Numbered from the stretch's first letter, positions 10,897 to 59,644 are shown. The stretch is DNA of 64,000 nucleotides from an uncultured Gammaproteobacteria bacterium (GCA_964415465.1 CAYQAL010000001.1:66749-130748), one strand, 5' to 3'. The notes: a model not told the origin generated them from the sequence alone. Translations and numbers: made by a program.

Positions 10897-10940
10897 GAAA
10901 AAAGTGTAGCAAGAAAGAGCGCGTTCTTTAAAATAAGATG

Positions 10941-10983
10941 GGCCCGGCCACCGTGTTCGTCCTCGCGAACGGGTGGCCGGGCC
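10941..10983 (-). terminator. GC-rich hairpin terminator
   Basis: GGCCCGGCCACC...GGTGGCCGGGCC: a 12-bp perfect stem plus an inner GTTCG/CGAAC stem, followed on the minus strand by a T-rich tract. Confidence 0.6.
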
Positions 10984-11003
10984 TTGGGTGGGGGAGCTTC
11001 CCC

Positions 11004-11153
11004 CTACGGCTTCTGCCTCTGTCGCTCCCTCAGGTTGAGGAGGTTCTTGGTGTTGCCCTCCTTGGTCCGTCGGCGCCGGCTGCGCTTGCGGTTCCGGTTC
11101 GGGTCGTCCTGCTTCTTCTTGCCCTTCGCTTCGTGATCTTCGTATCCGCTCAT
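11004..11153 (-). CDS. 49-aa highly basic small protein (MSGYEDHEAKGKKKQDDPNRNRKRSRRRRTKEGNTKNLLNLRERQRQKP)
   Basis: AGGAGG SD 8 nt upstream of the ATG. Nearly all codons end in G or C, unlike host genes. Lies 25 nt downstream of the ABC-F stop and is followed by a hairpin. Below the ORF-track size cutoff. Confidence 0.55.
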   Translation of the reverse strand: MSGYEDHEAKGKKKQDDPNRNRKRSRRRRTKEGNTKNLLNLRERQRQKP

Positions 11154-11178
11154 GGCAGACACCTCCTGGGGCAGGAAC

Positions 11179-12954
11179 CTAGCTCATTTCTTGAAAGTTT
11201 GCAAGCTTTTCAAGCTCTTCTTGAATTCGAATCCATTCGTGCTCTGTGTGGGCCAGAATCGTTTCAGCCTGGTGGAGTTCTTTTTGTCGTTCGATCGAGT
11301 AGCCCGTAGGATCCTTCAGATAGGCATCTAACAGCGCCTGACGCTTCTTTCCATAGTCATCCAGCTGCTTTTCGATCGTTTTTAATTGACGCTTGAGCTC
11401 TTGTGTTCGTTCATGCCGGTCACGCTTTTCTTGCTTGCGTGCTTCTTCGGCGAAGTCTGTTTCATCCATTGGGACCATCTCACGACGCGTATCCGAAACA
11501 TACTCTTCGTAGCCACGTGGGTCCAAGCCGGCACGGCCGTTTCGTACTTCGAGCAGGTGGGTAGCGAGTGTCTTAACGAACGTACGTGAGTGACTCACGA
11601 AGAGCACGGTTCCTTTCCAACGAGTGAGCGCTTCGGCGAGCGCCTCCGTTGTCTCCATGTCCAAATGGTTCGTCGGTTCGTCAAGTAATAAAATATCAGG
11701 ACGCCCTAAGAGGAGACCGGCCAAACACAGACGCGAACGTTCGCCACCACTCAATACCCCGATGGGTTTATCGAGGTCATCTTCACGAAACAGAAAGTCA
11801 CTTGCGAGTTGAAGAAGGTCTTGTCTCACGACCGCTTGATCAGAAGCGAGTTCCAAGTGGCGCATGACGGTGAGGCTTGGATCAAGCGACTCTGTGACGT
11901 GCTGTGCGTAGACGGCGGCCTTCAAGCGATTAGCGAGTGTAAACGTTCCATCAAGCGGAGCAATTTGTTCTGAGAGTGTTTTTAACAGCGTTGATTTTCC
12001 TTGGCCGTTTTCCCCAACAATCGCCACGCGCTCTCCACGCTGGATTTCAAACGTAATGCCAGAAGCGACCGTTCGATCTGGGTAACCAATACTCAGTTCA
12101 TGCGTACGGAGCGCAAACGTCTTCCGAAACTCCACTTGAGGAATCCGGAGTCGAATGGTTGGGAGTGGGGGATCAATCTCAAGCGTGTTCAGTTTCCGGA
12201 GTTGCTTCATCTTGGATTGTGCTTGCGTTGCCTTCGAGGCTTTGGCACGGAAGCGCGTGATGAATTCTTCTAGGTGCGCCCGTTGCTCTTCGACGTTTTT
12301 ATTGAAACGCTCACGCATTTGATCGCGTTCTTCTTTGTAGCGCTGATAGGTGTCGACATCGCCTGGGAAGCTTGTGGCTTTTCCACGCTCAAGCTCAACC
12401 GTTCGATCACAGACGTTCCGCAAAAACGTACGATCGTGGGAAATAATCAAACATGCGTGACGAAACTCGTTCAACCACGCTTCAAGCAAGAATTGCGTTT
12501 GAAGGTCAAGGTGGTTGGTCGGTTCATCAAGGAGGAGAAGGGCTGGGTCTTGCAGCGCGAGCAACGTCAGCAAGATGCGCATGCGATAACCACCAGACAA
12601 ATCGTTACAGGGACGTGCTAGATGCTCTCTCTTCAGTCCAAAGCGTGAAGCCTCTTTCGCGCAGGTCCAGCTGGGTTTGCCGCTCTTTTCCTCTAGATAG
12701 GCTTCGACGGTTACGTTGTCTGGAAACTCTGCATGCTGCTCCAGATAGCCAATTGTACAACTATCAAATTTCAGGACTTCCCCTTGATCAGCCGCCTCCT
12801 TACCCGCAATGATGCGCATGAGCGTAGATTTCCCAGCGCCATTCCGCCCAATCAATCCAATCTTTTGCCCATCAGCAACGCTAAACGCTACTCCATCAAG
12901 GACGTGTTGGAGTCCGTACGACTTGGTGAGTCCTTGAATCTGGAGCAATGTCAT
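11179..12954 (-). CDS. ABC-F family ATPase (two ABC cassettes, no TM domain; translation-factor type)
   Basis: Walker A GRNGAGKST and GENGQGKST, signatures LSGGYRMR and LSGGERSR, charged C-terminal coiled coil. Confidence 0.9.
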   Translation of the reverse strand: MTLLQIQGLTKSYGLQHVLDGVAFSVADGQKIGLIGRNGAGKSTLMRIIAGKEAADQGEVLKFDSCTIGYLEQHAEFPDNVTVEAYLEEKSGKPSWTCAKEASRFGLKREHLARPCNDLSGGYRMRILLTLLALQDPALLLLDEPTNHLDLQTQFLLEAWLNEFRHACLIISHDRTFLRNVCDRTVELERGKATSFPGDVDTYQRYKEERDQMRERFNKNVEEQRAHLEEFITRFRAKASKATQAQSKMKQLRKLNTLEIDPPLPTIRLRIPQVEFRKTFALRTHELSIGYPDRTVASGITFEIQRGERVAIVGENGQGKSTLLKTLSEQIAPLDGTFTLANRLKAAVYAQHVTESLDPSLTVMRHLELASDQAVVRQDLLQLASDFLFREDDLDKPIGVLSGGERSRLCLAGLLLGRPDILLLDEPTNHLDMETTEALAEALTRWKGTVLFVSHSRTFVKTLATHLLEVRNGRAGLDPRGYEEYVSDTRREMVPMDETDFAEEARKQEKRDRHERTQELKRQLKTIEKQLDDYGKKRQALLDAYLKDPTGYSIERQKELHQAETILAHTEHEWIRIQEELEKLANFQEMS

Positions 12955-13011
12955 TGCCCAAGATTCTGCCTTATTTATTGATCTATTGCCAGTTTTTCTT
13001 TTGACCTGTGA

Positions 13012-13485
13012 TTATTGTTGCATGCGTCGCATCACCAATGGATCACTGCCGGCTGGTCTGATTTGAATGTTGGAGGCTGTGAGACTGCCGTCTGAGTTGG
13101 CGGTCCCCATAACGGTGACGTTCGTGCCGTTCGTAAGATCGTTCATACTGCCATCGGTCATCTTTCCGATGCGAGTGGAAGAAGAGGTGAGGACGATCTT
13201 CGAGCCGCCATCCATGAGCTTGAGCGTAATACCCGAGTCGTCTTTGCTCACGATCTCGCCATTCGAAAACCCACCTCCGTTTGAAGCACCGTTGACCATA
13301 CCTCCAGCGAACCGGCCTCCACCGGCACCATTTGGTTGCCCAGCGCGTTGAGCTCCATTTGGAAATCCAGGCCGTCCGTTTGCTGGCGCTGCTTCTGGTT
13401 TGGCGTAGACCATGCCTCCGTAAAACCCAAGCCCACCTGCTGCGACAATACTTACGATAAGAGAGATGATGAATTTATTATTCAT
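13012..13485 (-). CDS. secreted or membrane-anchored Gly/Asn-rich protein with a C-terminal beta-rich domain
   Basis: ORF track trimmed to ATG 13485 (MNNKFIISLIVSIVAAGG...), which overlaps the permease stop by 8 nt. The C-terminal ~70 aa resembles that of ORF 17422..17871. Confidence 0.6.
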   Translation of the reverse strand: MNNKFIISLIVSIVAAGGLGFYGGMVYAKPEAAPANGRPGFPNGAQRAGQPNGAGGGRFAGGMVNGASNGGGFSNGEIVSKDDSGITLKLMDGGSKIVLTSSSTRIGKMTDGSMNDLTNGTNVTVMGTANSDGSLTASNIQIRPAGSDPLVMRRMQQ

Positions 13486-15402: not shown

Positions 15403-15405
15403 AGA

Positions 15406-17415: not shown

Positions 17416-17421
17416 ACCATG

Positions 17422-19896: not shown

Positions 19897-19970
19897 TCCG
19901 GGATCGTCTAATGGTAGGACAACGGCCTTTGAAGCCGTGTATCTTGGTTCGAATCCAAGTCCCGGAGCCA
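19897..19970 (+). tRNA. tRNA-Gln (anticodon TTG)
   Basis: Cloverleaf by hand: acceptor TCCGGGA/TCCCGGA (U1-A72), anticodon arm ACGGC-CTTTGAA-GCCGT, T-loop TTCGAAT, G73, encoded CCA. Confidence 0.9.
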
Positions 19971-19971
19971 T
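19953..19971 (+). repeat. direct repeat copy 1 (tRNA-Gln 3' end)
   Basis: ATCCAAGTCCCGGAGCCAT. 15 of 19 nt, including an exact 10-mer CCGGAGCCAT, recur at 20330-20348. Confidence 0.6.
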
Positions 19972-19973
19972 CG

Positions 19974-20002
19974 AAAAACCATCGTAAAAAAGGTGGTTTT
20001 TT
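19974..20002 (+). terminator. intrinsic terminator after tRNA-Gln
   Basis: AAAAACCATC-loop-GGTGGTTTTTT stem-loop with a T-run. Confidence 0.5.
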
Positions 20003-20016
20003 GCTATCTTTTCCAT

Positions 20017-20325
20017 ATGGCACCATATCAATCTTTTAAACTGCTCTTAGTAGAAGCTGTAGGGTTATCAAAGAATGGATTTCACTTCTTTTTGGGAGCC
20101 TTGGCTTATTTGATGACCGTAGCGATTTTCAAGATTAAATTCACATCAGCCAAATCGTTGATTGCACCAATCGTCCTTGCGCTGCTCATGGAAATCATGG
20201 ATTTTCGTGACGCAACCGCCTTTGATATGAAGCTGGATTGGGCAGACAGCCTGAAAGACGTCTTATTAACCGTATCGTCACCTTTGATTATTTGGGCATC
20301 TCTAAATTTGCGTAATAAGTTCTAA
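20017..20325 (+). CDS. small 3-TM membrane protein, unknown function
   Basis: ORF track 19993..20325 trimmed to ATG 20017 because 19993 lies inside the tRNA terminator. Lower GC than the backbone. Confidence 0.5.
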   Translation: MAPYQSFKLLLVEAVGLSKNGFHFFLGALAYLMTVAIFKIKFTSAKSLIAPIVLALLMEIMDFRDATAFDMKLDWADSLKDVLLTVSSPLIIWASLNLRNKF

Positions 20326-20329
20326 CAGC

Positions 20330-20348
20330 GTCCACGATCCGGAGCCAT
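20330..20348 (+). repeat. direct repeat copy 2 (att-like remnant of the tRNA-Gln 3' end)
   Basis: GTCCACGATCCGGAGCCAT matches 19953-19971 at 15 of 19 positions, including the exact 10-mer. Confidence 0.6.
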
Positions 20349-20392
20349 AAGCTGGTGTTCCTGGTAACCCAGGTGCGTCGCTAAAAACCAAC

Positions 20393-20421
20393 ACCCCATC
20401 ACTGAAAAGTGGTGGGGTTTT
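20393..20421 (+). terminator. intrinsic terminator
   Basis: ACCCCATCACT-GAAA-AGTGGTGGGGT: 11-bp stem followed by TTT. Confidence 0.5.
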
Positions 20422-20453
20422 GCGATTAGTAGATCGAGTGCTAGTCTCTAAAT

Positions 20454-21179
20454 ATGAAATGGGAGCAATGTTTTGTTAATGTTTGCGATTCAGTATTTCG
20501 AATTAGAATTACATCGAGCGGAGGCCGATTTACCGGAACCGGTTTTGTTGCCGGTGTGTATGAAGTCAATCAAAAATTGAGCTGTGTGTTAGCCACCGCA
20601 AAACATCTTGTGATTAAATTGCGTGAAGACGAAAATGTTTTGTGGGAAGTTCAAAAAATAAACTGGCATGGTGATGTGGTGGGCGAGGTGAAGTTCGAGT
20701 CGAATATAAGCAAACTCGGTAACGGACCAGTAAGACTGTACCAAGATACGGACATAGCAATGCTAGCGATACCCATAGTTGATTTTCCTATCAAGCCAGT
20801 TAGGATCATCCATCCCTCTTACGAAGTTTACCCTGGCACACGGGTTGGTTGGGCTGGATTTCCTTCTTTTACGAGAAAAAGAACTAATGACAGGCAATAT
20901 CCTTGCTATTTTGAAGGTGTTATTTCATCAGTAGTTATAGAGAAAGGACGCTTATTCTATTTTGTCGATGGTCACGGTGGCGAGGGCGTAAGCGGCGGAC
21001 CACTATGGTATTGGAACGACGAGCAATCAAATTACGAAGTCATTGGAATTTGTAGCCAATATTTAAAGGCAGGCGATACGAACCTTGCTGCTCCAGGAAT
21101 GGTTGTATTTGAGTCAGTGAAGCCACTAATTACCTACCTAAGTACTTCAAGTGAAATAACGATGAATATTATTCATTAA
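20454..21179 (+). CDS. trypsin-like serine protease without a signal peptide
   Basis: Putative triad H in TAKHL, D in DTDIAML, S in GEGVSGGPLW (GDSGGP-like). AT-rich gene, about 35-45% GC by eye. Confidence 0.7.
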   Translation: MKWEQCFVNVCDSVFRIRITSSGGRFTGTGFVAGVYEVNQKLSCVLATAKHLVIKLREDENVLWEVQKINWHGDVVGEVKFESNISKLGNGPVRLYQDTDIAMLAIPIVDFPIKPVRIIHPSYEVYPGTRVGWAGFPSFTRKRTNDRQYPCYFEGVISSVVIEKGRLFYFVDGHGGEGVSGGPLWYWNDEQSNYEVIGICSQYLKAGDTNLAAPGMVVFESVKPLITYLSTSSEITMNIIH

Positions 21180-21274
21180 TTTTTTAAAAAGCTTACTATA
21201 TACTTTAAAACCTTCTCAAGAGCCCCTCAAACTCCTTGCAAAGCCTAGTCTGCAACCAGCCCGTCGAGCCACGC

Positions 21275-21310
21275 AAAACCGACCTCAAATGAAGGTCGGT
21301 TTTGTCATTT
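21275..21310. terminator. bidirectional intrinsic terminator
   Basis: AAAACCGACC-loop-GGTCGGTTTT flanked by an A-run and a T-run. Confidence 0.6.
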
Positions 21311-21342
21311 TTCAAGAACTGAAATACCGCGCTCCCTGGGGA

Positions 21343-21363
21343 GTACCGCAAGGGGTGCGGTAC
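21343..21363 (-). terminator. GC hairpin downstream of the island-2 genes
   Basis: GTACCGCA-AGGGG-TGCGGTAC: 8-bp perfect stem with no clear T-run. Confidence 0.4.
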
Positions 21364-21390
21364 GTCAGGGGCGCGGCGTGAGTGCCGACC

Positions 21391-21543
21391 CTACTGCTTG
21401 GCGGGGAAGCAGAAGAGCAGGGGCCTCCCACCCTGCTTCGTCTGCCTCCCGCTTGCCTTCCAGTGCACGATCATCTCGCGCGTCTTCTGGAAGAGGAGGG
21501 TGAGGTCCTGGGGCGCGGTCTCTTCGGTGTATGTGGCTTCCAT
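21391..21543 (-). CDS. 50-aa small protein (MEATYTEETAPQDLTLLFQKTREMIVHWKASGRQTKQGGRPLLFCFPAKQ)
   Basis: GGAGA SD 6 nt upstream of the ATG; 15 nt after the stop of the upstream gene; below the ORF-track cutoff. Confidence 0.5.
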   Translation of the reverse strand: MEATYTEETAPQDLTLLFQKTREMIVHWKASGRQTKQGGRPLLFCFPAKQ

Positions 21544-21558
21544 GGCGTCTCTCCTGAC

Positions 21559-22128
21559 TCAGGGGCTTCGGATGATCTCCGTTCCCTGCTGGATGATGAT
21601 GGTGTTGCCGGGTGTCTCGAGGAACGACATGAGGTCGTCGACCTGCTCCGGCGTCTTCTCGAGGAAGCGGCGTCGGAGGAGCTCCTCGATCGCCGGGGCG
21701 TTCGCGACGATCCAGACGGTGTCGGTGCGCTCGGCGGCCGCGGTGATGGGGGACCTCGAGCGTTCGATGCCGTTCGCGGCGAGGAGCGCTTCGTCGCTCA
21801 ACGCTGTGGTCAGCATGATCGCCGCATAGCCGTCGGCGTGCGGCACAGTCTTGTCGATCGGGCCTGGCACGACGAGCGTTGCGAGCTTGTCGGGGCGATC
21901 GCGCCACCGCACTCGCATGGCCTCGTTGTCGATCCCGATCACGAACTTGGCGTTGAGGACGTAGGCCTCCTGGATCGCGGCGGTCACCTGTCCCTGCGTC
22001 AGTCTCTGACCGTCAGGAAGTCCGGCTTGCCGTTCGCGGATCAGCCGACTCGCGATCTCGAACAGCCGAGTGCGGCTCTCGAGTCTGCGAAGAGAGAGGG
22101 GAGAGGTATCATCTGAGGCGCCGGTCAT
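21559..22128 (-). CDS. 189-aa hypothetical protein with high-GC (actinobacterial-like) codon usage
   Basis: ORF track 21559..22227 trimmed to ATG 22128 (MTGASDDTSPL...), preceded by GGAGA at 6 nt. Third codon positions are overwhelmingly G or C. No family recognised. Confidence 0.7.
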   Translation of the reverse strand: MTGASDDTSPLSLRRLESRTRLFEIASRLIRERQAGLPDGQRLTQGQVTAAIQEAYVLNAKFVIGIDNEAMRVRWRDRPDKLATLVVPGPIDKTVPHADGYAAIMLTTALSDEALLAANGIERSRSPITAAAERTDTVWIVANAPAIEELLRRRFLEKTPEQVDDLMSFLETPGNTIIIQQGTEIIRSP

Positions 22129-22385
22129 AGCATTCTCCGTGGCAGGTCTCGCCAGAATCGGCGAGAGGGGGGTCGGGTGAGCGGTGAGTCCTAAGCTTCT
22201 CTCCTTAGATAAGATATAAGAAGACAAAATGAGGCATCACCACTCTGTAAAAGGAACCGGAAACAATAACAAAATATAGGATTTTGTCAATCGAAAGGTC
22301 TATTTTTAGCTAAGAACTAGCTTGATTGCTTGCCTTTTAGAGGCTTGGGCGTACACTGAGCACCTCTTCTATTCTTCTCTTCTCT

Positions 22386-24008
22386 ATGTCTCTTCAGACG
22401 CTGCTTGGTCGAATGCGTGAAAACTGGAAGTCCGGCCTAACGGTTTCCTTGGTTTCGATTCCACTCTCCGTTTCTTTAGCGGTTGCTTCTCAATCTACTC
22501 CGACAGCAGGTATTATCACGGCGATTTGGGCGGGGCTCATGGCCTCGATTTTTGGAGGGAGTAATTTTAATATCATTGGTCCTACAGGAGCTCTGTCTGG
22601 ATTTCTTGCGACCTACGCGATCGTGCATGGTGCACACACCTTGCCGATGCTTGCGTTAGTAACAGGGGTGTTCGTGTTGATTGCCTATGTGTTCAAGCTT
22701 GAGAAATTCCTCGTGTTTGTTCCAGGAAGTGCGGTTCATGGCTTCACCTTAGGCGTCGCTTTTATTATCGCCTTCAACCAATTCAATTTCGCGCTTGGCT
22801 TGTCCGGTTTGCCAAAGCATGAAGCGTTTATTGATAACTTGTTTGAGTCGTTCCGTCATATTGGTGCGTTGAACCCACAGATCTTCGTGATGTTCTTGAT
22901 CTTCTTGGCGTTGATGTTTGTAATGTTGAAAGTGATCCCAAAAATTCCAGGAGCGATTGTCTTGGCTCCGATTGGTATTTTAATTGGGTATTTGTCGCAG
23001 AAGGGGATCGTGCCAGTCGCTGTGCAAACCTTGGGCTCTCGTTACCCAGACATGACGCCAAAGTTGTTTGAGATGCCCACGTTCTTTTTTCATTCCTCGT
23101 TGATTACCGCTGGGTTAGCCGTTGCGGTGATCGCGATTTTGGAAACGATGCTTTCTGCCAAAATCGCAGACGGCATGACGAAGACGAAGCACAATAAGCG
23201 CAAGGAAATGTTCGGCTTGGGCGTGGCGAACTTAGCATCCGGATTGATGGGCGGTATTCCTGCCACGGCGGCCTTGGCACGTACGTCTCTTAATGTAAAA
23301 ACAGGAGCGACGAGTAAAATGTCGGCAACGATCAGTAGTGTCGCCATTGCGATCATTTCGATCTTCTTACTTACGACGTTCCGCTACATTCCACTCGCGG
23401 TCATTGCAGCTATCTTGGTTTTCGTCGCCTTCCGCATGATTGAGCGCGAACACTTTGTTCGTATGTTCCATTCGGACAAGAAAAATTTCGTGATCGCTCT
23501 TTTGGTAGCGATTGCGACGATCTGGATTGATCCGATTGTCGGTATCTTGATTGGAACAGCAATCGCTCTCTTGATTTTCGTGGAGAAGCTATCACGTGGT
23601 CAATTTGAACTGATCGTTGATAATGAAGACCACAAATTTACCGAAAAAATCACCTCAGAAACGCTCGAGAAGATCGAGAAAGTTGGAGATACCATTATCT
23701 ACTCAATCAAAGGACAGTTGGCGTATATCAATGGTCAATCTCACATTGCACGCTTTGAGCAAGGATTGAACGCCTACAAACACATCGTCCTTCGTCTACG
23801 TGAACTGTCATTTATCGACCTGGATGGCGTGGATGCATTCGATGAAATCGTTCATCTCATCCAATCTCAAGGAAAAAAAGTCTTAGTCTCCGGGGCGAGT
23901 CCGCTAGTGAGTGAATTGCTCCAAGAGAGTCATGCCTATAAGAAGCTGGAACAAGAAGGGGCGGTCTTTACACGTACGAGTGAGGCTTTGAAAACGCTTG
24001 GTTATTAA
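22386..24008 (+). CDS. SulP-family anion transporter with a C-terminal STAS domain
   Basis: 540 aa, multi-pass SulP-type membrane core, C-terminal STAS-like fold (IVLRLRELSFIDLDGVDAFDEI). Confidence 0.9.
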   Translation: MSLQTLLGRMRENWKSGLTVSLVSIPLSVSLAVASQSTPTAGIITAIWAGLMASIFGGSNFNIIGPTGALSGFLATYAIVHGAHTLPMLALVTGVFVLIAYVFKLEKFLVFVPGSAVHGFTLGVAFIIAFNQFNFALGLSGLPKHEAFIDNLFESFRHIGALNPQIFVMFLIFLALMFVMLKVIPKIPGAIVLAPIGILIGYLSQKGIVPVAVQTLGSRYPDMTPKLFEMPTFFFHSSLITAGLAVAVIAILETMLSAKIADGMTKTKHNKRKEMFGLGVANLASGLMGGIPATAALARTSLNVKTGATSKMSATISSVAIAIISIFLLTTFRYIPLAVIAAILVFVAFRMIEREHFVRMFHSDKKNFVIALLVAIATIWIDPIVGILIGTAIALLIFVEKLSRGQFELIVDNEDHKFTEKITSETLEKIEKVGDTIIYSIKGQLAYINGQSHIARFEQGLNAYKHIVLRLRELSFIDLDGVDAFDEIVHLIQSQGKKVLVSGASPLVSELLQESHAYKKLEQEGAVFTRTSEALKTLGY

Positions 24009-24027
24009 GTAGAGATCTAGTTAAATG

Positions 24028-24062
24028 CAAACATACCCAGGATTTATTCCTGGGTATGTTTG
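24028..24062 (+). terminator. perfect 15-bp hairpin after the SulP gene
   Basis: CAAACATACCCAGGA-TTTAT-TCCTGGGTATGTTTG. Confidence 0.6.
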
Positions 24063-24167
24063 AATCCTTTCGCTACCAAACGTACTGATAGAGATAGGAC
24101 TTGGCCGTTGAGTCAGCTGGCCAGGCCGGTTCGTTACCACCGCAGGTTTGCGATGGACGACGAGTAT

Positions 24168-24407
24168 TTACGGATACTCACAGCCGGAGGAAGCGTTTTC
24201 GGCGCTTCGCCGTGAACGTTGATCCGAGCGTTCCTCGGCCAGCTTCTTCGCCGTCTCCATCGTTCGCGCTATGTACCTCTTCTGTGAGGTGTGCACGATG
24301 GAGCGACTTCGGCTGGTTGAGTGTTCGATAGAAATCTTCGCCTTCTGTCGTCTTGGATCGGACGACGGGTTCCTGGTTGACGAGGGCAGAACATCCAGGT
24401 TCTTCAC
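24168..24407 (-). CDS. 79-aa Ser/Arg/Lys-rich ORF, GTG start overlapping the stop of mini-ORF e
   Basis: GTGA overlap with the upstream mini-ORF. Best GC3 of the three minus frames by hand count. No family recognised. Confidence 0.25.
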   Translation of the reverse strand: MKNLDVLPSSTRNPSSDPRRQKAKISIEHSTSRSRSIVHTSQKRYIARTMETAKKLAEERSDQRSRRSAENASSGCEYP

Positions 24408-24439
24408 CTGAGTCGGAAGTCGCGCCAGGTCTTAGACAT
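24404..24439 (-). CDS. mini-ORF e: MSKTWRDFRLR*
   Basis: ATG with the context gaagggattgaaagcc. Shares TGGCGCGACTT with mini-ORF d. Its TGA stop overlaps the GTG of the 79-aa ORF. Confidence 0.3.
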   Translation of the reverse strand: MSKTWRDFRLR

Positions 24440-24598
24440 GGCTTTCAATCCCTTCGACTATTCCCGATCGCGCCGCGTGACCCGCGTGGGCTCAGCCGCG
24501 ATCGGTACGCGTGAGTCTTCGCCGTAGAATGACTCACTGCCAGGCAGGTCAATTGCAGGAAGTTCTCACCTTACGGCAGATGAGTTCTTCCGACGTCC

Positions 24599-24625
24599 CT
24601 ATACGAGACAAAAGTCGCGCCACAT
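24599..24625 (-). CDS. mini-ORF d: MWRDFCLV*
   Basis: AAGGAG 10 nt upstream of the ATG; WRDF motif shared with mini-ORFs a and e. Confidence 0.3.
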   Translation of the reverse strand: MWRDFCLV

Positions 24626-25036
24626 GGCTTGCGAACTCCTTTCTCATCGAACCTCTCGAGCGGCTCCAGTCGATCGGGATGATCGAATCGAGCAGCTAGT
24701 CGAGGTGAGGTGCGTAGCGAGTGGATCCGTGGATCGGAAACGCTTGGAGCAGCCCCTCGTAGGAGTTGTGGTGGAGAGCGAAGGTGCTGCCCAGCGTTGT
24801 GGGCGTGGGGTGGGGCTTGTGTGAGTCGTCGCGGACGCCCACGGTTGGAGGCGCTTACTGTCCTTTCAGCGCCTACCGCACTTTGCCACGCGGCGGTGGG
24901 CTCGAGGTCTCGTGGCGCGAGACGGGTCGAGCAGGGATTGGTGTCCGGACCCCTCAGATCCGGCCGGGTTGATACGCGCCGCGTCGTTGCCGACGCAGGT
25001 TCTTCCCGGAGGAGGCGACAGAAAGCCACTCGGTCG

Positions 25037-25066
25037 CTACATGAACGGATCGCGTGAAAGCAGCAT
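25037..25066 (-). CDS. mini-ORF c: MLLSRDPFM*
   Basis: AAGGAG 7 nt upstream. Identical peptide to mini-ORF b; the three nucleotide differences are all at third codon positions. Confidence 0.35.
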   Translation of the reverse strand: MLLSRDPFM

Positions 25067-25187
25067 CTGCTTTCTCCTTCCTTGTTGCCCGTCGTATCGT
25101 CGCTGTCCGTGCGCCGTGTGCTGGACGCGTTGACGGGGTTGAGGTTGTGTGGAGCTTTGCCGATATTTCTATCGGCGACCTAAGTCG

Positions 25188-25217
25188 CTACATGAATGGA
25201 TCACGTGAGAGCAGCAT
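25188..25217 (-). CDS. mini-ORF b: MLLSRDPFM*
   Basis: AAGGAG 6 nt upstream; a conserved ~47-nt block shared with copy c, 151 bp away. Confidence 0.35.
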   Translation of the reverse strand: MLLSRDPFM

Positions 25218-25352
25218 GCTCTTCTCCTTGCAGTGGCCAGCACCCACATCGTTGCCCGTCGCGTTGGGCGCCATGATGTCGGTGGGTGCGGGGCGGGTGT
25301 CTATTTTCGGGTTGTTCTCCACGTTCCGTTGGTACGGCCGCGGAAAACAACC

Positions 25353-25391
25353 CTAGGTACCCAGACGCCAGTCACGCCAGATGCAGCTCAT
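25353..25391 (-). CDS. mini-ORF a: MSCIWRDWRLGT*
   Basis: AAGGAG 6 nt upstream, preceded by the hairpin GGGGA-ATCG-TCCCC. Confidence 0.3.
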   Translation of the reverse strand: MSCIWRDWRLGT

Positions 25392-25592
25392 GGAGTGCTC
25401 CTTGGTTGTTGGGGACGATTCCCCGTTCCGCGCTGCCTTGTCGTTGAGCCGAGTAGTCGCCGAAGCGACCGTGCTCTGTGACCGCGTTGCAGCGCGACCT
25501 AATAATATACTACAAATCTCAACTTTTGTCAATGTATTTGAATATTTTTGCCTAAATAAACAGAAAAACTCATTCCGAGGCTAGCTCAGATT

Positions 25593-25601
25593 TGCTATAC
25601 T
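25593..25601 (+). promoter_or_regulatory. extended -10 TGCTATACT upstream of the nuclease gene
   Basis: TTCCGA-17-TATACT with an upstream TGn; the ATG lies 17 nt downstream with no SD. Confidence 0.35.
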
Positions 25602-25618
25602 TTTTTTCATCACTTGCT

Positions 25619-26236
25619 ATGCCTGTCCCTTCTTCCTTTACAACAAAACGACTCATTCGTTTGGTAGGTGCGCTCTGTGTCGTCCTTTTATTTGGTGCGG
25701 CCCAACTTTGGCAGAGTGAAGGAAAATTGAGTTTACCGAGTACAGAAACAGCTTCGCTTGAAGGAACGGAGCAGTATTACACCGCTTCTACAACCAGAGG
25801 GGTCCTGGCGCTTGTCACGCGCACCGTGGATGGCGATACGATTGATGCAAAGATCGAGTCTTCTGGTGAAGTGGTAAAAGTTCGCTTTCTTGGGATGAAT
25901 ACGCCTGAGTCGGTTGATCCGCGTCGTCCCGTGCAATGTTTTGGAAAAGAGGCGTCGAATCGTTTGAAGGAGTTAATCGAGGGAAAGAACGTGTTACTGA
26001 TTGATGATCCAAAGGCTGACGATCGCGATAAATATGGGCGTTGGTTACGAAATGTTGTCCGTGTAGAAGATAGCTTGGATGTAAATGCGACGCTGGTGGC
26101 ACAAGGTTATGCGAATGCGTATCTTTCGTTTCCGTTGGATGCGAAACGTAAAGCACAGATCCGTGCTCTAGAAGAGGAGGCAAAAACAAACAAGCGCGGC
26201 CTTTGGAGTCCTTCAACGTGCGAAGGAAAAAAATAA
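25619..26236 (+). CDS. secreted thermonuclease (staphylococcal nuclease fold)
   Basis: N-terminal TM/signal sequence, then VDGDTIDA...VRFLGMNTPES...DKYGRWL...GYA motifs. Start trimmed to ATG 25619. Confidence 0.85.
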   Translation: MPVPSSFTTKRLIRLVGALCVVLLFGAAQLWQSEGKLSLPSTETASLEGTEQYYTASTTRGVLALVTRTVDGDTIDAKIESSGEVVKVRFLGMNTPESVDPRRPVQCFGKEASNRLKELIEGKNVLLIDDPKADDRDKYGRWLRNVVRVEDSLDVNATLVAQGYANAYLSFPLDAKRKAQIRALEEEAKTNKRGLWSPSTCEGKK

Positions 26237-26247
26237 AGTCGATAGTC

Positions 26248-26335
26248 AAACTGGCGAGAGGGACGTACTCACCCGGTCCGCAAGCGCTTCGCTAACACCA
26301 TTGCTCCCGGGTTCGCACATCCCTCTCGCCAGTTT
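26248..26335. terminator. long compound hairpin between convergent genes (bidirectional terminator candidate)
   Basis: 16-bp perfect outer stem AAACTGGCGAGAGGGA/TCCCTCTCGCCAGTTT, inner ACCCGG/CCGGGT stem, A-run upstream and T-run downstream. Confidence 0.55.
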
Positions 26336-46164: not shown

Positions 46165-46236
46165 GGGGTAGTAGCTCAATGGCAGAGCGCCCGGGTTTAG
46201 CCCCGGGAGGTGAGGGTTCGAATCCCTTCTGTTCCA
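46165..46236 (+). tRNA. tRNA-like gene with a non-canonical anticodon arm (CCCGGG-TTTAGC-CCCGGG) and a G3:U70 acceptor stem; no encoded CCA
   Basis: Acceptor GGGGTAG/CTGTTCC with three wobble pairs, D arm GCTC-AATGGCA-GAGC, T arm GAGGG-TTCGAAT-CCCTT, A73. The anticodon loop can only be 6 or 8 nt. Confidence 0.55.
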
Positions 46237-46327
46237 CAAAGAAATGTCTCTTTGAGAGGCTCGATTGGTCACGCTGACCGGTCGGGCCTCTTCCTATTTT
46301 AAGCCAAAATCCGTAAGATGGGCCGGT

Positions 46328-49853: not shown

Positions 49854-50642
49854 ATGAACCCGGCGTACTCCTACGTCTACGATGAAACAGCCGCGTTGCC
49901 ACGCTACGCAACGGAGCTGGGTCGTATTGAAACGGAAGCGAGTCGTTGCGGGATTAATGGACGCATTGCGCGCTTAGGGGTCTTTCGCCAACCAAAAAAA
50001 GTCATCGAAGAGGCCGTAAACTATGGGGCGAAAACAATTGTGTTCGTTGGGACAGATCAAGCAGTCTATCACCATTTGGGCGCGTTGATTGAGTTGGACG
50101 TGACGATCGCTTTTTTGCCACTCGAAGCGAATAGCGGCCTTGGTTGGGCGCTCGGCGTTCCGACCGGGGCGAAGGGTGTTGAGATCATCGCTGGTCGACT
50201 GACAGAGACGATCGATGTCGGCTACTTGCAGGGCCAGCCTTTTTTAACAGAGATTTCGTTGCCGAACACGCCGGCAGCCATCGAAGTTGATAAAAAATAC
50301 CGAGTGAGCCCAGCGCAGCGCGGGTCGATTGCGATTCGGAATATTGGATCGCTCTACTGTTCCTCAAAAACGATTGCTGTGCCGACGGACGGCGTTCTTG
50401 AAGTCGTCCTTCAATCCGAGATGAAGAAGCAGGGGATTCGCAACTTTTTTCGCTCGGAGCTCGTTGAAACCAAGCTTTTACTCAAAGAGGGAACGGTGGT
50501 CTGCAAAGACGGCGTGCATGGGTTTGTAGATGGGACAGGGAATTTGTCAGGGACGAGCCTCCATTTTTCAATAAAACCAAAAGCAGCACGCATTATTATT
50601 GGCCGTAACTGTCAGTGGCGAAAGAATACAGAGGAGCGTTGA
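49854..50642 (+). CDS. DAGK/YegS-like kinase-fold protein with a degenerate GGDGT motif
   Basis: Layout resembles a diacylglycerol kinase catalytic domain, but VGTDQAV replaces GGDGT. Weak call. Confidence 0.45.
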   Translation: MNPAYSYVYDETAALPRYATELGRIETEASRCGINGRIARLGVFRQPKKVIEEAVNYGAKTIVFVGTDQAVYHHLGALIELDVTIAFLPLEANSGLGWALGVPTGAKGVEIIAGRLTETIDVGYLQGQPFLTEISLPNTPAAIEVDKKYRVSPAQRGSIAIRNIGSLYCSSKTIAVPTDGVLEVVLQSEMKKQGIRNFFRSELVETKLLLKEGTVVCKDGVHGFVDGTGNLSGTSLHFSIKPKAARIIIGRNCQWRKNTEER

Positions 50643-50719
50643 CGGTTGGTGTCAAATCTTGCCTAATACCCCTGTTCCAAGCCGCTGGGGTTTTGGGATC
50701 TCTGGAGGTAATACCGCCG

Positions 50720-51034
50720 ATGCCGTCGAAACTCGCCTTGTGCGCCTTCGTGCTTTGCTGCGATCACGAGCTGCCCCGACAGGCGCTGCTCACTGATCAC
50801 GGCCTGTCCATTCAGCCGCCGACTCGACGATCGTCGGGTTCGGATCCGCTTCGTCCACCGTTCGAACGAGTGACGATGCGCTGCTGGGCTGTCTGCTCGC
50901 ACAGTGGATCGTGTGGATGCGGCTGCCGTGTGCCGATCTTCGGTCACGGTCGCCACCCTGATCAGTACCAGCCGGCGCGCGACCCGCGCTTCCTGCCGCG
51001 GATCATCGTCGCTCCCCACCGCCTCGCTGCCTGA
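50720..51034 (+). CDS. 104-aa Cys/Pro/Arg-rich ORF (coding status uncertain)
   Basis: GGAGG 11 nt upstream of the ATG and a 12-bp hairpin downstream. GC3 about 72% by hand count, only marginally better than an antisense frame. Confidence 0.3.
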   Translation: MPSKLALCAFVLCCDHELPRQALLTDHGLSIQPPTRRSSGSDPLRPPFERVTMRCWAVCSHSGSCGCGCRVPIFGHGRHPDQYQPARDPRFLPRIIVAPHRLAA

Positions 51035-51071
51035 TCACGGTGGTGCGAGGCGTTCTACGCCCGCACCCGAC

Positions 51072-51109
51072 GTGCTCGCCCCCTCGGCAGCCCACTCGGG
51101 GGCGGGCAC
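51072..51109 (+). terminator. GC-rich hairpin at the end of island 3
   Basis: GTGCTCGCCCCC-14 nt-GGGGGCGGGCAC: 12 bp including one G:U pair, followed by TTCGTT. Confidence 0.45.
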
Positions 51110-51113
51110 TTCG

Positions 51114-51150
51114 TTGACCATTTTGAATACATCCGATAGGATACGGCCAC
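51114..51150 (+). promoter_or_regulatory. tRNA-Leu promoter: TTGACC-17-TAGGAT followed by ACGGCCAC
   Basis: The 14-nt TAGGATACGGCCAC is identical to the one upstream of the initiator tRNA at 58639-58652. Confidence 0.5.
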
Positions 51151-51164: not shown

Positions 51165-51251
51165 GGGCAAGTGGCGAAATTGGCAGACGCACTACCTTGA
51201 GGTGGTAGCACCCGCAAGGGTATGAGAGTTCAAGTCTCTCCTTGCCCACCA
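51165..51251 (+). tRNA. tRNA-Leu (anticodon GAG), class II
   Basis: Acceptor GGGCAAG/CTTGCCC, anticodon arm CTACC-TTGAGGT-GGTAG, long variable arm, T-loop TTCAAGT, A73, encoded CCA. Confidence 0.9.
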
Positions 51252-52663: not shown

Positions 52664-52674
52664 ACACAAAAAAT

Positions 52675-52800: not shown

Positions 52801-52808
52801 GCTACACT
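52800..52808 (+). promoter_or_regulatory. extended -10 TGCTACACT 9 nt upstream of the ATG at 52818
   Basis: TGn plus TACACT, then agacgccgt, then ATG; no SD. Confidence 0.35.
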
Positions 52809-52817
52809 AGACGCCGT

Positions 52818-53834: not shown

Positions 53835-53840
53835 CACTAT

Positions 53841-54098: not shown

Positions 54099-54150
54099 GC
54101 CTTATCATTGCTCTGCCTACGCCCGTATGGTGAGATACGGGAACACTCTT

Positions 54151-54156
54151 TAGTCT
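54151..54156 (+). promoter_or_regulatory. -10-like TAGTCT 8 nt upstream of the aspS ATG
   Basis: TAGTCT-tcattttt-ATG; no SD. Confidence 0.3.
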
Positions 54157-54164
54157 TCATTTTT

Positions 54165-55565: not shown

Positions 55566-55583
55566 GAGTCGCTGTTCTTTCTC

Positions 55584-56848: not shown

Positions 56849-56853
56849 ACCCC

Positions 56854-57795: not shown

Positions 57796-57819
57796 TATCA
57801 GGCTAAGGTAACCTGCTTC

Positions 57820-57848
57820 TTGCCAGGATCCCAGCTGATTGTTAGACT
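57820..57848 (+). promoter_or_regulatory. candidate promoter TTGCCA-17-TAGACT, ~120 nt upstream of tRNA-CAT
   Basis: Hexamers at 57820-57825 and 57843-57848. Confidence 0.35.
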
Positions 57849-57977
57849 CGAGTCCGTTCGAAAAGAACCGTTTGCGTGTAGTGTCTGTTCGTTATTGCGA
57901 AGCAAAGCGCAGGCGTGACGCAGACCCAAGTGAGCGCCGTAGGCGTGAACGGGTGGTCAGCGTCACTAGCCGAGCAA

Positions 57978-58054
57978 GGCGGGGTAGCTCAGTTGGTTAG
58001 AGCGAAGGACTCATAAGCCTTAGGTCGGCGGTTCGATTCCGCCCCCCGCTACCA
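57978..58054 (+). tRNA. tRNA with anticodon CAT (elongator Met or lysidine-modified Ile2; not distinguishable by eye)
   Basis: Acceptor GGCGGGG/CCCCGCT (G1:U72), anticodon arm AAGGA-CTCATAA-GCCTT with an A31/G39 mismatch, T-loop TTCGATT, A73, encoded CCA. Confidence 0.85.
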
Positions 58055-58060
58055 ACAAAC

Positions 58061-58090
58061 CCATCCGAGAAATCGGGTGGTTTTGTTTTT
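58061..58090 (+). terminator. intrinsic terminator after tRNA-CAT
   Basis: CCATCCGA-GAAA-TCGGGTGG followed by TTTTGTTTTT. Confidence 0.65.
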
Positions 58091-58128
58091 AGGCGAATTC
58101 TGCTACTCTCTTGGCATTCAATGAGCGT

Positions 58129-58605
58129 ATGTTCATCACGACCCATGCTCTGATCGGTGCGTTAGTGGCAAACGCGTTTCCTCATCATCCGGTGCTGTCC
58201 TTTGGCTTGGGTATGGCGTCACACTTTTTGACGGATATCATCCCACACGGAGATTCAAAGCTGTATAAAGACTACATCAGTGGTTCCAAGAAAAAAGTTC
58301 GTAAAGCCTTTGCGTATGTTCTGTTGGATGGAGTGGCCGCTATTTATACGGTTTTGTTTCTCTTAAACGTTGGTTCGGCGCCAGATCGCCTCACATTATC
58401 GCTCGGTATTGCTGGTGGTGTCTTGCCTGATTTGTTGGTTGGATTGTACGAAGTAACGCGAATCCCAGGGTTGCGTTGGTTTCATCGCCTTCATTTCTTC
58501 TTCCATAACTTGATTACGTCTCGCAAAGGGGATGTGGCGTTTCACTCGGGGTTGGCGATTCAATTTGGATTACTGGCACTCGTCTGTGTAAAGCTGTTTG
58601 ATTAA
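58129..58605 (+). CDS. membrane-bound metal-dependent hydrolase-like protein (YdjM/DUF457-like)
   Basis: THALIGA and HFLTDIIPHGD motifs, 4 TM helices. Start trimmed to ATG 58129. Confidence 0.5.
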   Translation: MFITTHALIGALVANAFPHHPVLSFGLGMASHFLTDIIPHGDSKLYKDYISGSKKKVRKAFAYVLLDGVAAIYTVLFLLNVGSAPDRLTLSLGIAGGVLPDLLVGLYEVTRIPGLRWFHRLHFFFHNLITSRKGDVAFHSGLAIQFGLLALVCVKLFD

Positions 58606-58614
58606 TTGTCTTGA

Positions 58615-58652
58615 TTGACAGAAGCGGGTGATGTTCGCTAGGATACGGCCAC
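58615..58652 (+). promoter_or_regulatory. initiator-tRNA promoter: TTGACA-18-TAGGAT followed by ACGGCCAC
   Basis: Same TAGGATACGGCCAC module as at 51137-51150. Confidence 0.5.
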
Positions 58653-58662
58653 GACAATTTGT

Positions 58663-58739
58663 AGCGGGGTAGAGCAGCCAGGTAGCTCGTCGGGCCCATA
58701 ACCCGAAGGCCGCCGGTTCAAATCCGGCCCCCGCAACCA
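58663..58739 (+). tRNA. initiator tRNA-fMet (anticodon CAT)
   Basis: Close to the E. coli tRNA-fMet as recalled: three G-C pairs closing the anticodon stem, 1:72 mismatch (A1/A72), encoded CCA. The anticodon loop reads CCCATAA, i.e. C at position 33. Confidence 0.9.
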
Positions 58740-58743
58740 AGTG

Positions 58744-58778
58744 AAACACATCGTGAAAGCGGTGTGTTTTTCTTTTTG
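58744..58778 (+). terminator. intrinsic terminator after the initiator tRNA
   Basis: AAACACATCG-loop-CGGTGTGTTT followed by a T-run. Confidence 0.65.
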
Positions 58779-58917
58779 TTCTCTCAGATATTCGATAAGT
58801 TTTGTATTCTAATATTTACTTTTTCCTCGGGCTGGCTTATGCTATTCGCTATTCCTTGGGTCTCAAGGGACAAAACTCGAGAAGGTCGGAAGCAGCCTCA
58901 AGAGGAGGGATTGGGAC

Positions 58918-59544
58918 ATGGCGAAGACGGCGGCCAGTGTGCGTTCAGCTCCACAGTCTCAGATCATGGTCGCAGCCTCGGCTGACGAGACGGCGGAGGA
59001 CATCATCCTCCACGCGCTCAAGCCCTGGACGCGGGGTGTTCGTCGGCGGACCTTGAAATGGTCCGCGAGGAAGGAGGATGAGAAGAAGCGCCAAGCCGCT
59101 GAGTCCGAGCTCCCGCCCCAGCGCCTGCAGATCCTGCGAGCGCTCGCCACGCTGGTGGCAGTCTCGTCGGACGACGTCGAGCACGGCTACACGGCCACCC
59201 AGATCCTGGCGTTCGGCCTGGCGCTCTACCCCGACTCCCTCCTGTTCCAGGAGGCAGATGGGTCGATCGTCATCCCGACGACCAAACTCCTCACCGCCAA
59301 GCTCTCCGGGCAGGGAGAGGGCACGCTGCAGTACAGCGGCTACATCCGCTGCCTGCACGAGTCGACCGGCGTCAAGAACACGATCGGCGACGGGGAGCGA
59401 ACGCGACTGCGCGTTCACCTCACTACGAAGGGTGCACAGTCGGCCCTCGACGACGGTTGGCTCCCACCGCTCGCCGGCTACATGCAGACGCTCCTGCGGC
59501 GCGCCCAGCGTCGCATGAGCCTCGGTGTCCTCACCATGGTCTGA
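58918..59544 (+). CDS. 208-aa putative winged-helix DNA-binding protein with high-GC codon usage
   Basis: GAGGAGGG SD upstream of the ATG; very high GC3. wHTH-like segments LQILRALATL...GYTATQILAFGL...RVHLTTKGAQSAL. Antisense shadow ORFs rejected. Confidence 0.65.
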   Translation: MAKTAASVRSAPQSQIMVAASADETAEDIILHALKPWTRGVRRRTLKWSARKEDEKKRQAAESELPPQRLQILRALATLVAVSSDDVEHGYTATQILAFGLALYPDSLLFQEADGSIVIPTTKLLTAKLSGQGEGTLQYSGYIRCLHESTGVKNTIGDGERTRLRVHLTTKGAQSALDDGWLPPLAGYMQTLLRRAQRRMSLGVLTMV

Positions 59545-59574
59545 GGATCGCTGACTCCCTGCTTCCGACCATCT

Positions 59575-59612
59575 CTACTGCCCGCATTCGGTGCTCCGCG
59601 TGCGGGCAGTAG
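59575..59612 (+). terminator. GC-rich hairpin after the island-5 gene
   Basis: CTACTGCCCGCA-14 nt-TGCGGGCAGTAG: 12-bp perfect stem. Confidence 0.55.
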
Positions 59613-59644
59613 TGTCTCAAAAGGAGATGTTTTCTTGTGACACA

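Follow-up and report, generated by a model that had tools for sequence, protein, structure and literature searches.

How can short islands of GC-rich DNA lie in the intergenic gaps of a genome of about 52% GC and keep their composition there? The question is raised by a 64,000-nucleotide stretch deposited as an uncultured gammaproteobacterium (GCA_964415465.1, CAYQAL010000001.1:66749-130748), which is referred to here as the window and in which positions are counted from the first letter. An initial annotation, made from the sequence alone, had described five such islands and had attributed them to repeated uptake of DNA from an actinobacterial donor. The best-supported description at present, which we regard as evenly poised between right and wrong, is that the islands are horizontally derived, GC-rich accessory loci that depend on Shine-Dalgarno (SD) sites, lie at recombination hot spots, and are shuffled by homologous recombination. 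As part of this description, some of the island loci would be old, fixed slots, and no donor was found.

Composition and translation signals of the islands

The GC content of the window is 0.523, with a standard deviation of 0.047 across 200-bp windows. When the sequence was segmented by log-likelihood under GC contents of 66% and 51.5%, the five best-scoring segments corresponded to the five regions of the initial annotation, i.e., 21327-22184 (island 2; score 35.5, GC 0.657), 58920-59607 (island 5; score 31.9, GC 0.666), 50714-51107 (island 4; score 22.3, GC 0.683), 24652-25499 (island 3; score 17.3, GC 0.623), and 10940-11112 (island 1; score 11.5, GC 0.699). The null consisted of 30 first-order Markov simulations, in which the best score per run had a mean of 9.3 and a maximum of 15.3; islands 2, 3, 4, and 5 score above this maximum. 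Island 1 falls below it and is marginal by GC content alone, and it is supported by the GC content of its third codon positions (GC3). At the island edges, the GC content of the raw sequence jumps from approximately 0.40 to approximately 0.68 over a few bases, and all five islands are contained in intergenic gaps, as had been annotated.

The open reading frames (ORFs) of the islands are distinguished from those of the surrounding genome, termed the backbone here, by their codon-position composition. The GC3 of 55 backbone ORFs is 0.534 ± 0.051, whereas that of four island ORFs is 0.84-0.90 (z = 6.0-7.3). The GC contents at the first, second, and third codon positions of the island ORFs are about 0.56-0.66, 0.40-0.48, and 0.84-0.90, respectively, a profile that is compatible with high-GC phyla in general and not diagnostic of Actinomycetota. 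Frame plots display a high-GC coding pattern in islands 1, 2, and 5, with a third-position GC content of 0.80-0.97, and neither a clean third-position periodicity nor a stable coding frame in islands 3 and 4. The annotated use of G or C at nearly every third position thus holds for the ORFs of islands 1, 2, and 5 and does not extend to islands 3 and 4, which are noncoding or decayed apart from the small SD-led ORFs of island 3. The GC-normalised dinucleotide distance (delta*) between the islands and the backbone is 122, compared with 35 ± 11 for the null; islands 2 and 5 are separated from the backbone by 210 and 196, respectively, and from each other by 91. This signature favours a separate origin for the coding islands. 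Overall, the composition is strongly distinct from that of the host genome for islands 1, 2, and 5, and more weakly so for islands 3 and 4.

The two sets of genes also differ in their translation-start signals. An SD 4-mer precedes 5 of the 55 backbone genes, which is the chance rate obtained with random 17-mers (0.10), whereas SD sites (AGGAGG, GGAGA, AGGAGA, and GAGGAGG) are found at all four island ORFs. The count becomes 9 of 9 when the micro-ORFs of island 3 are included, among them one whose site is a weak AAGGGA, and the difference in SD use between the islands and the backbone gives Fisher p values of 3e-4 to 7e-8. In 25 of the 55 backbone ORFs, a TAnnnT box is located 5-11 nt before the start codon; the proximity of this box to the ATG suggests leaderless transcripts, and backbone mRNAs may be widely leaderless or SD independent. 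The starts at 59838, 52818, 53841, and 10395 (minus strand) illustrate this non-SD pattern. GC-rich hairpins are located downstream of the island ORFs, whereas the terminators of the backbone are A/T flanked. With respect to the strong SD sites, the terminal GC hairpins, and the SD-poor backbone genes with their A/T-flanked terminators, the initial annotation was accurate. Taken together, the codon-position GC contents, the SD-led starts, and the dinucleotide signature point to genes that were shaped in a genome of approximately 65-68% GC and not in the 52% GC backbone.

Automatic gene calling in the GC-rich patches chooses opposite-strand ORFs over the high-GC3, SD-led ORFs. Spurious calls of this kind are located at 10938-11309 on the plus strand of the window (123 aa) and at 9162-9809 on the plus strand of the sibling sequence L011 (215 aa), and there is no call in island 4. 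Island proteins are therefore partly missing from protein databases; in practical terms, the small proteins and micro-ORFs of GC-rich patches are largely invisible there through misannotation.

Contents of the island loci in related genomes

The window lies in a 155,443-bp NCBI contig, and one sibling contig is 927,721 bp long. Two backbone proteins have cluster mates of at least 90% identity (MBP9762905.1 and MBP9762444.1), which NCBI nr labels "Patescibacteria group bacterium" in both cases, in agreement with the Patescibacterial host that had been considered as a possibility initially. When genome contigs were scanned with a MacA-like protein of the backbone, two distant Chloroflexi loci were the only matches. 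The Logan assembly of DRR685534 (L001) is 100% identical to the window over 20393-26298, which covers islands 2 and 3 with both junctions, and an NCBI contig of a metagenome-assembled genome (L013) is 100% identical across island 5. Siblings at 90-96% identity hold diverged island copies at the same junctions, and island 1 was found in L010, L025, and L026, i.e., all three siblings that could be examined. Because the junctions of islands 1, 2, 3, and 5 are found in independent assemblies, a chimera is excluded for these four islands, as had been argued initially for all five. The island 4 version of the window was not re-found in a second assembly, and the same breakpoints are present in three siblings. 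Presence/absence or replacement of islands at conserved sites was observed, and the slots of islands 2 and 4 have different cargo in each sibling. It is reasonable to regard the islands as foreign, nonchimeric DNA in a Patescibacterial host.

The cargo of island 2 (21391-22128, minus strand) consists of a 189-aa ORF (21559-22128) with a GGAGA SD site and a GC3 of 0.84 and a 50-aa ORF (21391-21543) with an AGGAGA SD site and a GC3 of 0.90. A predicted sigma-70-like promoter (22263-22290, minus strand; TTGACA-16-TGnTATTGT) is located in AT-rich DNA at the island edge. The promoter region (22161-22285) is approximately 78-80% conserved in L011, lies within the homology to L018, and is 72% similar to the promoter region of island 3. 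The putative nested-hairpin terminator (21300-21375, minus strand) has the outer stem CGCGCCCCTG...CAGGGAGCGCG, which is followed by UAUUUCAG; the outer stem CCGCG(C/T)CCCTGA...TCAGG..GCGCGG and the U-rich tail are kept in the window, L011, L006, L016, and L018, and the upstream ORFs differ among the genomes that share this architecture. Since the promoter and the terminator are conserved around differing cargo, the island 2 locus behaves as a fixed expression slot.

The occupants of this slot range from close copies to unrelated genes. The 96% sibling L011 carries a 204-aa allele with 32% identity and a GC3 of 0.92, and the siblings L006 and L007 carry a 90%-identical copy with a 290-bp deletion. 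L016 (SulP identity, 89%) and L017 (76%) carry P0057 (31% identical) and P0058 (29% identical), respectively, and L018 (87%) carries an unrelated membrane-anchored, SD-led ORF with a GC3 of 0.80; in L028 (86% DNA identity across the SulP region), the slot is absent and a pyrB-like gene is located there. The only relatives of the island 2 family are P0001, P0057, P0058, and the L011 allele, all of which adjoin the SulP orthologue, and P0057 and P0058 are divergent to SulP, as is the case in the window. The alleles of the island 2 protein are 29-33% identical, compared with 76-98% for the neighbours. Between island 2 and its copy in L006, the nonsynonymous (dN) and synonymous (dS) divergences are 0.033 and 0.115, respectively, and the percent identity equals that of the flank.

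Island 2 is located 1.36 kb from tRNA-Gln (19897-19970, plus strand), within a strain-variable region whose left boundary, at 19971, coincides with the 3' end of this tRNA. The portion from 19971 to 21250 also has AT-rich accessory genes (GC 0.40-0.43), i.e., a 102-aa ORF and a gene for a 241-aa trypsin-like protein, in place of which L011 has other AT-rich genes. The presence of AT-rich and GC-rich accessory genes in one variable region indicates that the accessory pool of this lineage is compositionally bimodal. In L025 (GCA_964465335.1), positions 1-3095, which correspond to 19971 of the window, contain genes for a 622-aa large serine recombinase, a 158-aa protein, and a 911-aa FtsK/TraG/DUF87-like protein. 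This DNA at the 3' end of tRNA-Gln has a GC content of 0.41-0.51 and looks like an integrative element at the hot spot that holds the variable region of island 2.

Island 3 (24025-25532, minus strand) is predicted to be one transcription unit that extends from a near-consensus promoter (25532-25504, minus strand; TTGACA-17-TATATT) to a bidirectional terminator (24025-24065) common to SulP. On the minus strand, it contains micro-ORFs with strict SD sites that encode MSCIWRDWRLGT (25391-25353), MLLSRDPFM in two copies (25217-25188 and 25066-25037), and MWRDFCLV (24625-24599), and a further micro-ORF, MSKTWRDFRLR (24439-24404), which is the one with the weak AAGGGA site. The two MLLSRDPFM copies differ at three positions, all of which are synonymous. 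Micro-ORFs with the core WRD[WF][RC]L and GGAGG sites are also located downstream of SulP in L028 (MDETHLWRDWRLE and MFRQPWRDFRLHRRFHG) and L017 (MDEIHLWRDFRLHC); the window has three copies, L028 has two (at 3258 and 3503), and L017 has one (at 290). The variation between the copies is synonymous or outside the core. The recurrence of these SD sites in L017 and L028 implies that the anti-SD sequence is still functional. No further WRD[WF][RC]L micro-ORF turned up in the 305 kb of loci that were retrieved, metagenome contigs scanned in translation for the MLLSRDPFM pattern yielded no hit, and Rfam covariance models detected only tRNAs above threshold, with no match in islands 3 and 4. In L018, island 3 is absent and a Rieske-like gene is found at its site. 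A recent sweep of island 3, which is 100% identical in L011, was considered and rejected: the zero-mismatch tract spans 23411-26298 and thus reaches well past the island, so that the identity is not island specific.

Island 1 (10938-11178, minus strand) consists of a 49-aa ORF (11004-11153) with an AGGAGG SD site, followed by a GC hairpin (10939-10982). The ORF is on the same strand as an ABC-F gene, 25 nt past its stop codon, and encodes a very basic protein; its GC3 is 0.88 (z = 6.8), and its in-frame third-position GC content is 0.85-0.95.

Island 4 (50624-51110) is approximately 0.49 kb of GC-rich filler between the gene for a 262-aa lipid-kinase-like protein and the promoter of tRNA-Leu(GAG) (51165-51251, plus strand), which is directly downstream. 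It has no convincing gene, no codon periodicity, and no gene on record, and it closes with a GC hairpin at about 51079-51108. The promoter sequence TTGACC starts at 51114, and the patch that had been described as ending 5 nt before the -35 element of a tRNA-Leu promoter is therefore island 4, and not island 3 as was stated initially. The homology to L012, L013, and L014 is lost at 50623 and returns at 51109-51113; at this site, each of the three holds a different filler with a GC content of 0.59-0.61, and no similarity between the fillers of the different genomes was detected by tblastx. The promoters of tRNA-Leu(GAG) and tRNA-Met (51114-51150 and 58615-58652) have in common TTGAC(C/A), a spacer of 17-18 nt, and TAGGATACGGCCAC, and their discriminator regions are identical.

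Island 5 (58850-59615, plus strand) lies downstream of tRNA-Met (58663-58739, plus strand) and is convergent with tRNA-Leu(CAA) (59674-59760, minus strand). It contains a 208-aa ORF (58918-59544) with a GAGGAGG SD site and a GC3 of 0.85, and a GC hairpin without a U-tract (59575-59612). The protein has the conserved blocks LQILRALA, DGSIVIPTT, LRVHLT..GA, and GWLPPLAGY, on the basis of which it may be winged-helix-like. The ORF is bracketed by a 17-nt inverted repeat (58879-58895 and 59559-59575), in which 16 of 17 positions are complementary; in L002-type alleles, one arm is altered and there is no compensating change. Either pairing between the 5' and 3' untranslated regions or a relic terminal repeat could account for it. 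The same site is occupied by the island in L002, L003, and L004, at 94.8% identity, and in L013, at 100%; in L012, the island is missing. L005 has a 46%-identical homolog (GC3, 0.70) near the same KefC-like gene, and its backbone DNA is approximately 76% identical. The dS of island 5 relative to L002 is 0.098, which is lower than that of its neighbours (0.29-0.80). Direct contact with a tRNA gene is limited to islands 4 and 5, as against the three of five that the initial annotation had counted.

Relative to the 96% siblings, the window displays kilobase tracts without mismatches mixed with tracts of 5-12% divergence, and this mosaic pattern was seen over 3292-26298 in comparisons with L010, L011, L025, and L026. 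The mosaics point to very frequent homologous recombination in this population and fit a highly recombinogenic lineage prone to DNA uptake. The divergent tract (12%) that carries the L011 allele of island 2 runs approximately 1 kb into SulP, which indicates allele replacement by recombination with diverged relatives and not by a cassette-specific mechanism.

In L012 (GCA_964567995.1), which is more distantly related, an extra 2 kb with a GC content of 0.60-0.65 is located between tRNA-Leu and the AsnRS gene (2516-4477). One of its ORFs has a weak match to Phage_integrase (E = 1.7e-4, under the Pfam cutoff), and a second ORF is 30% identical to the first. In blastn and tblastn searches of plasmids and phages, these tyrosine-recombinase fragments gave only generic XerD-like matches, with no actinobacterial affinity. 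No integrase and no repeats common to the ends of different islands were found in the window, and a mobile-element family common to the islands was rejected since there are no shared terminal repeats. Elsewhere, L010, L025, and L026 carry an extra 684-aa gene between the genes for an M3 oligoendopeptidase and a photolyase, which the window lacks (8552-8572). ARAGORN reports an undefined tRNA (tRNA-???) with an abnormal 2-nt anticodon at 46165-46237, 70 nt after tRNA-Leu(TAA), to which the Rfam tRNA model assigns 56 bits.

Origin of the island DNA and persistence of its composition

A word-indexed search of 5.8 billion clusters returned siblings only, namely, P0001 for island 2 and P0002-P0004 for island 5. 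An exhaustive phmmer search with the 189-aa protein against 1.84 billion representatives found P0001, P0057 (31%), and P0058 (29%); P0059, a weak partial match (E = 2.5e-4, 34 residues), was disregarded as a relative of island 2. No match was found in tblastn and blastn searches of the islands against 72,556 plasmids and 50,697 phages, scans of IMG/VR viral contigs with both protein families revealed no relatives, and no match for any island protein or allele was found in Pfam, NCBIfam, PHROGs, PADLOC, and the PDB sequences. The search with the L011 allele found no homolog, because the gene caller took the opposite strand there. For the 208-aa and 189-aa proteins, AlphaFold2 gave unusable models (pLDDT of 34 and 45, respectively). 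The collections that were searched are rich in sequences of Actinomycetota and of the plasmids and phages of this phylum, and the lack of a match therefore leaves the specific donor that had been named initially without positive support.

From the composition and start signals, we infer a foreign origin of the islands, and the timing of their arrival is inferred likewise. The island DNA would come from a high-GC gene pool and settle at a small number of hot spots for recombination or integration, i.e., the region 3' of tRNA-Gln, the intergenic gaps before tRNA-Leu(GAG) and from tRNA-Met to tRNA-Leu(CAA), the flanks of SulP, and the tail of the ABC-F operon. There it would be wired into host expression: islands 2 and 3 are predicted to be transcribed from promoters of the sigma-70 consensus type, located in AT-rich DNA at the island edges, and island 1 would be expressed by virtue of its place 25 nt after the ABC-F stop codon on the same strand. 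Homologous recombination in the conserved flanks would then pass the resident content from one related lineage to another, which would explain why the alleles of siblings are deeply divergent, or their fillers unrelated, although the junctions are identical.

Several observations weigh against an origin of this kind. Homologs outside close relatives were found for no island protein or DNA, and no donor was identified by these searches; the island 2 family occurs only at one slot in this lineage, and the island 5 family occurs only in relatives. By delta*, islands 3 and 4 are much nearer to the backbone (91 and 124, respectively). No att-type direct repeats, partial tRNA duplications, or mobility genes were found in the window. 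The loci are also old. The proportion of synonymous differences (pS) in SulP between the window and L016, L017, and L018 is 0.71-0.72, i.e., saturated, and yet the island 2 and island 3 families are at the same loci in relatives across this distance, as is the island 5 family in a relative with approximately 76% backbone DNA identity. The occupants of the adjacent slot across the saturated SulP span all have a GC3 of 0.78-0.92. Changes between G or C (S) and A or T (W) make up approximately 86% of the third-position differences in the backbone; together with the saturation of SulP, this leads to the estimate that neutral amelioration would remove about 85% of the GC3 excess and leave a GC3 of about 0.6. 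Furthermore, the conservation of the island 2 terminator and the recurrence of the micro-ORF SD sites in L017 and L028 indicate that part of the seemingly foreign grammar is native and functional. Polarisation of the substitutions with L005 as the outgroup gave six S-to-W and three W-to-S changes, which are too few sites. The persistence of a GC3 near 0.8-0.9 can be attributed either to renewal of the cargo from a high-GC reservoir or to a local force; with respect to the reservoir, the island 2 family has been seen only in this slot and in this lineage. The five separate insertions that had been proposed initially, if taken as single recent events, are not supported in view of the occurrence of the island 2, 3, and 5 families at the same loci in divergent relatives, the conserved promoter and terminator around island 2, and the variable fillers of slots 2 and 4.

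The persistence of the composition leads to the main alternative, possible though doubtful, that the islands are native, lineage-specific loci, i.e., old expression slots for fast-evolving small proteins and micro-peptides, and that their GC content is actively maintained near 65%, for instance by selection on mRNA structure or stability, by selection on SD-dependent translation, or by GC-biased repair or conversion. Native loci would explain why the island 2 and 3 families are found at the same loci across saturated SulP dS, why the island 5 family keeps its locus in the relative with approximately 76% backbone identity, why the GC content is elevated in all of these cases, and why the families are found nowhere else. 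The conserved promoter and GC-rich terminator around variable cargo, the recurring SD sites of the micro-ORFs in L017 and L028, the ordinary short-range substitution rates of the islands, which show no hypermutation, and the GC richness of their noncoding parts are consistent with it as well. However, no known mechanism keeps a GC3 of 0.85-0.9 in a few genes of a 52% GC genome. Biased gene conversion would be powerless on the nonhomologous fillers at sites 2 and 4, and the crossover flanks are GC poor (0.43). By their GC-normalised signatures, islands 2 and 5 are no nearer to the backbone than an unrelated genome is, and the third-position differences between close alleles are mostly of the S-W type and not S-S, with no sign of strong purging of GC-to-AT changes.

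In the model of the initial annotation, DNA of an actinobacterial host cell with a high GC content was taken up directly on several recent occasions, with five independent insertions as the result. All fillers, including the unrelated ones of the siblings, deviate in the same direction with similar GC contents (0.59-0.68), which suggests one dominant high-GC source; the relatives are labelled Patescibacteria, cultured Saccharibacteria live on Actinobacteria, and the siblings are strong recombination mosaics. We nevertheless consider this model improbable, for there were no matches to Actinomycetota or their phages and plasmids at the protein or DNA level despite dense sampling, and random host fragments of 0.5-1.4 kb should usually match known protein families, which none of the islands does. 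In addition, three of the loci are older than the radiation of the clade, the same rare family is always found in the same slot, and the recombinase fragments at the sibling hot spot lack actinobacterial affinity. These fragments, which are GC rich and lie between tRNA-Leu and AsnRS in L012, together with the serine recombinase and FtsK/TraG-like genes at tRNA-Gln in L025, would accord with decayed, tRNA-targeting integrative elements (prophages or elements resembling integrative and conjugative elements (ICEs) or their actinomycete counterparts (AICEs)) that have lost their integrases and retain a few cargo genes, and so would the contact of islands 4 and 5 with tRNAs and the start of the island 2 variable region at the 3' end of tRNA-Gln. 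Such elements are nonetheless a very improbable source: partial tRNA duplications, att repeats, and mobility genes are lacking in the window, the L025 element has a normal or low GC content, islands 1 and 3 are not near tRNAs, and there is no PHROG or viral match. Finally, the abrupt compositional steps and the single recovery of the island 4 version are what an assembly or binning chimera would produce, in which high-GC reads of another organism were spliced into the contig. The chance of this is close to nil in view of the identity of L001 over both junctions of islands 2 and 3 and of L013 across island 5, the occurrence of island 1 in three siblings, and the diverged copies at the same junctions in siblings of 90-96% identity; moreover, the promoter and terminator of island 2 are conserved in the clade, and a consensus promoter is located at the edge of island 3.

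Horizontally derived loci exchanged by homologous recombination thus remain the reading that we prefer. A more specific and rather unlikely proposal is that the clade keeps fixed slots with a native promoter and terminator, through which ORFan and WRD[WF][RC]L cargo of approximately 65% GC and SD-dependent expression turns over rapidly in spite of the saturated backbone. This would require either a continued, slot-targeted supply from a high-GC partner that has not been sampled and may be the physical host, or a local mechanism or selective force, new to science, by which a second class of genes, distinct in composition and translation, is preserved within one very small genome. Should a high-GC partner be the source, the slots would record at the sequence level how DNA flows from a host to its episymbiont, here an uncultured Patescibacterium; local maintenance of the composition would point to an unrecognised force that shapes synonymous sites.

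Comparison with known systems

Horizontal acquisition is already documented in Patescibacteria, in which as much as 13% of the genome length has been attributed to it, mostly from other Patescibacteria (PMC12455944), and Saccharibacteria have acquired the arginine deiminase system (PMC8764695; PMC7427843). The present case resembles these acquired regions (PMC12455944; PMC8764695; PMC7427843) in that the recipient is a small-genome lineage with relatives labelled Patescibacteria. The published cases, however, involve recognisable genes with traceable donors, whereas every cargo gene here is an ORFan without a homolog outside the clade. What is unusual here is the GC richness of the accessory DNA, the persistence of its composition, and the conserved micro-peptide locus.

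Genomic islands and islets at tRNA-adjacent hot spots are commonly interpreted within the Lawrence-Ochman amelioration framework, and accessory DNA is usually AT-richer than the core. The islands of the window share with classical genomic islands an atypical composition, sharp borders, an intergenic or tRNA-adjacent location, polymorphism among relatives, and ORFan cargo. They are unlike them in their very small size (0.24-1.4 kb) and in that the window lacks an integrase, att repeats, and a transposase; they are also GC-richer than the core, and their composition has not decayed while the synonymous sites of the backbone are saturated. Compositional islands as such are common, and the departures that matter here are three, i.e., a GC content above that of the core, a different grammar of translation initiation, and a composition that is kept at fixed loci over deep divergence while siblings swap the content.

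Short regulatory peptides encoded by micro-ORFs are known from the TnaC, Erm, and Msr leader peptides. Island 3 is like these in that its SD-led ORFs span 8-13 codons and have a core that is conserved (WRD[WF][RC]L or MLLSRDPFM) and is unlike them in that there is no downstream structural gene, five micro-ORFs lie on one predicted 1.45-kb transcript, and there is no Rfam match. Island 2 recalls integron cassettes, since its cargo varies between a conserved promoter and a conserved 3' stem-loop. Unlike integrons, the window contains no IntI, the islands have no attI or attC family in common, and there is a single slot in place of an array; the exchange is explained by homologous recombination into SulP (12% divergent tracts).

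Capsule and O-antigen loci and the hot spots of defence islands are hypervariable loci kept by allelic replacement through flanking homology. The cargo described here differs from theirs in that it comprises one or two small genes, has no PADLOC hit, and has an extreme GC3 in all alleles. As in those loci, the position is the same in relatives, the alleles are 29-33% identical at the amino acid level compared with 76-98% for the neighbours, and the exchanged tracts end in the flanking genes.

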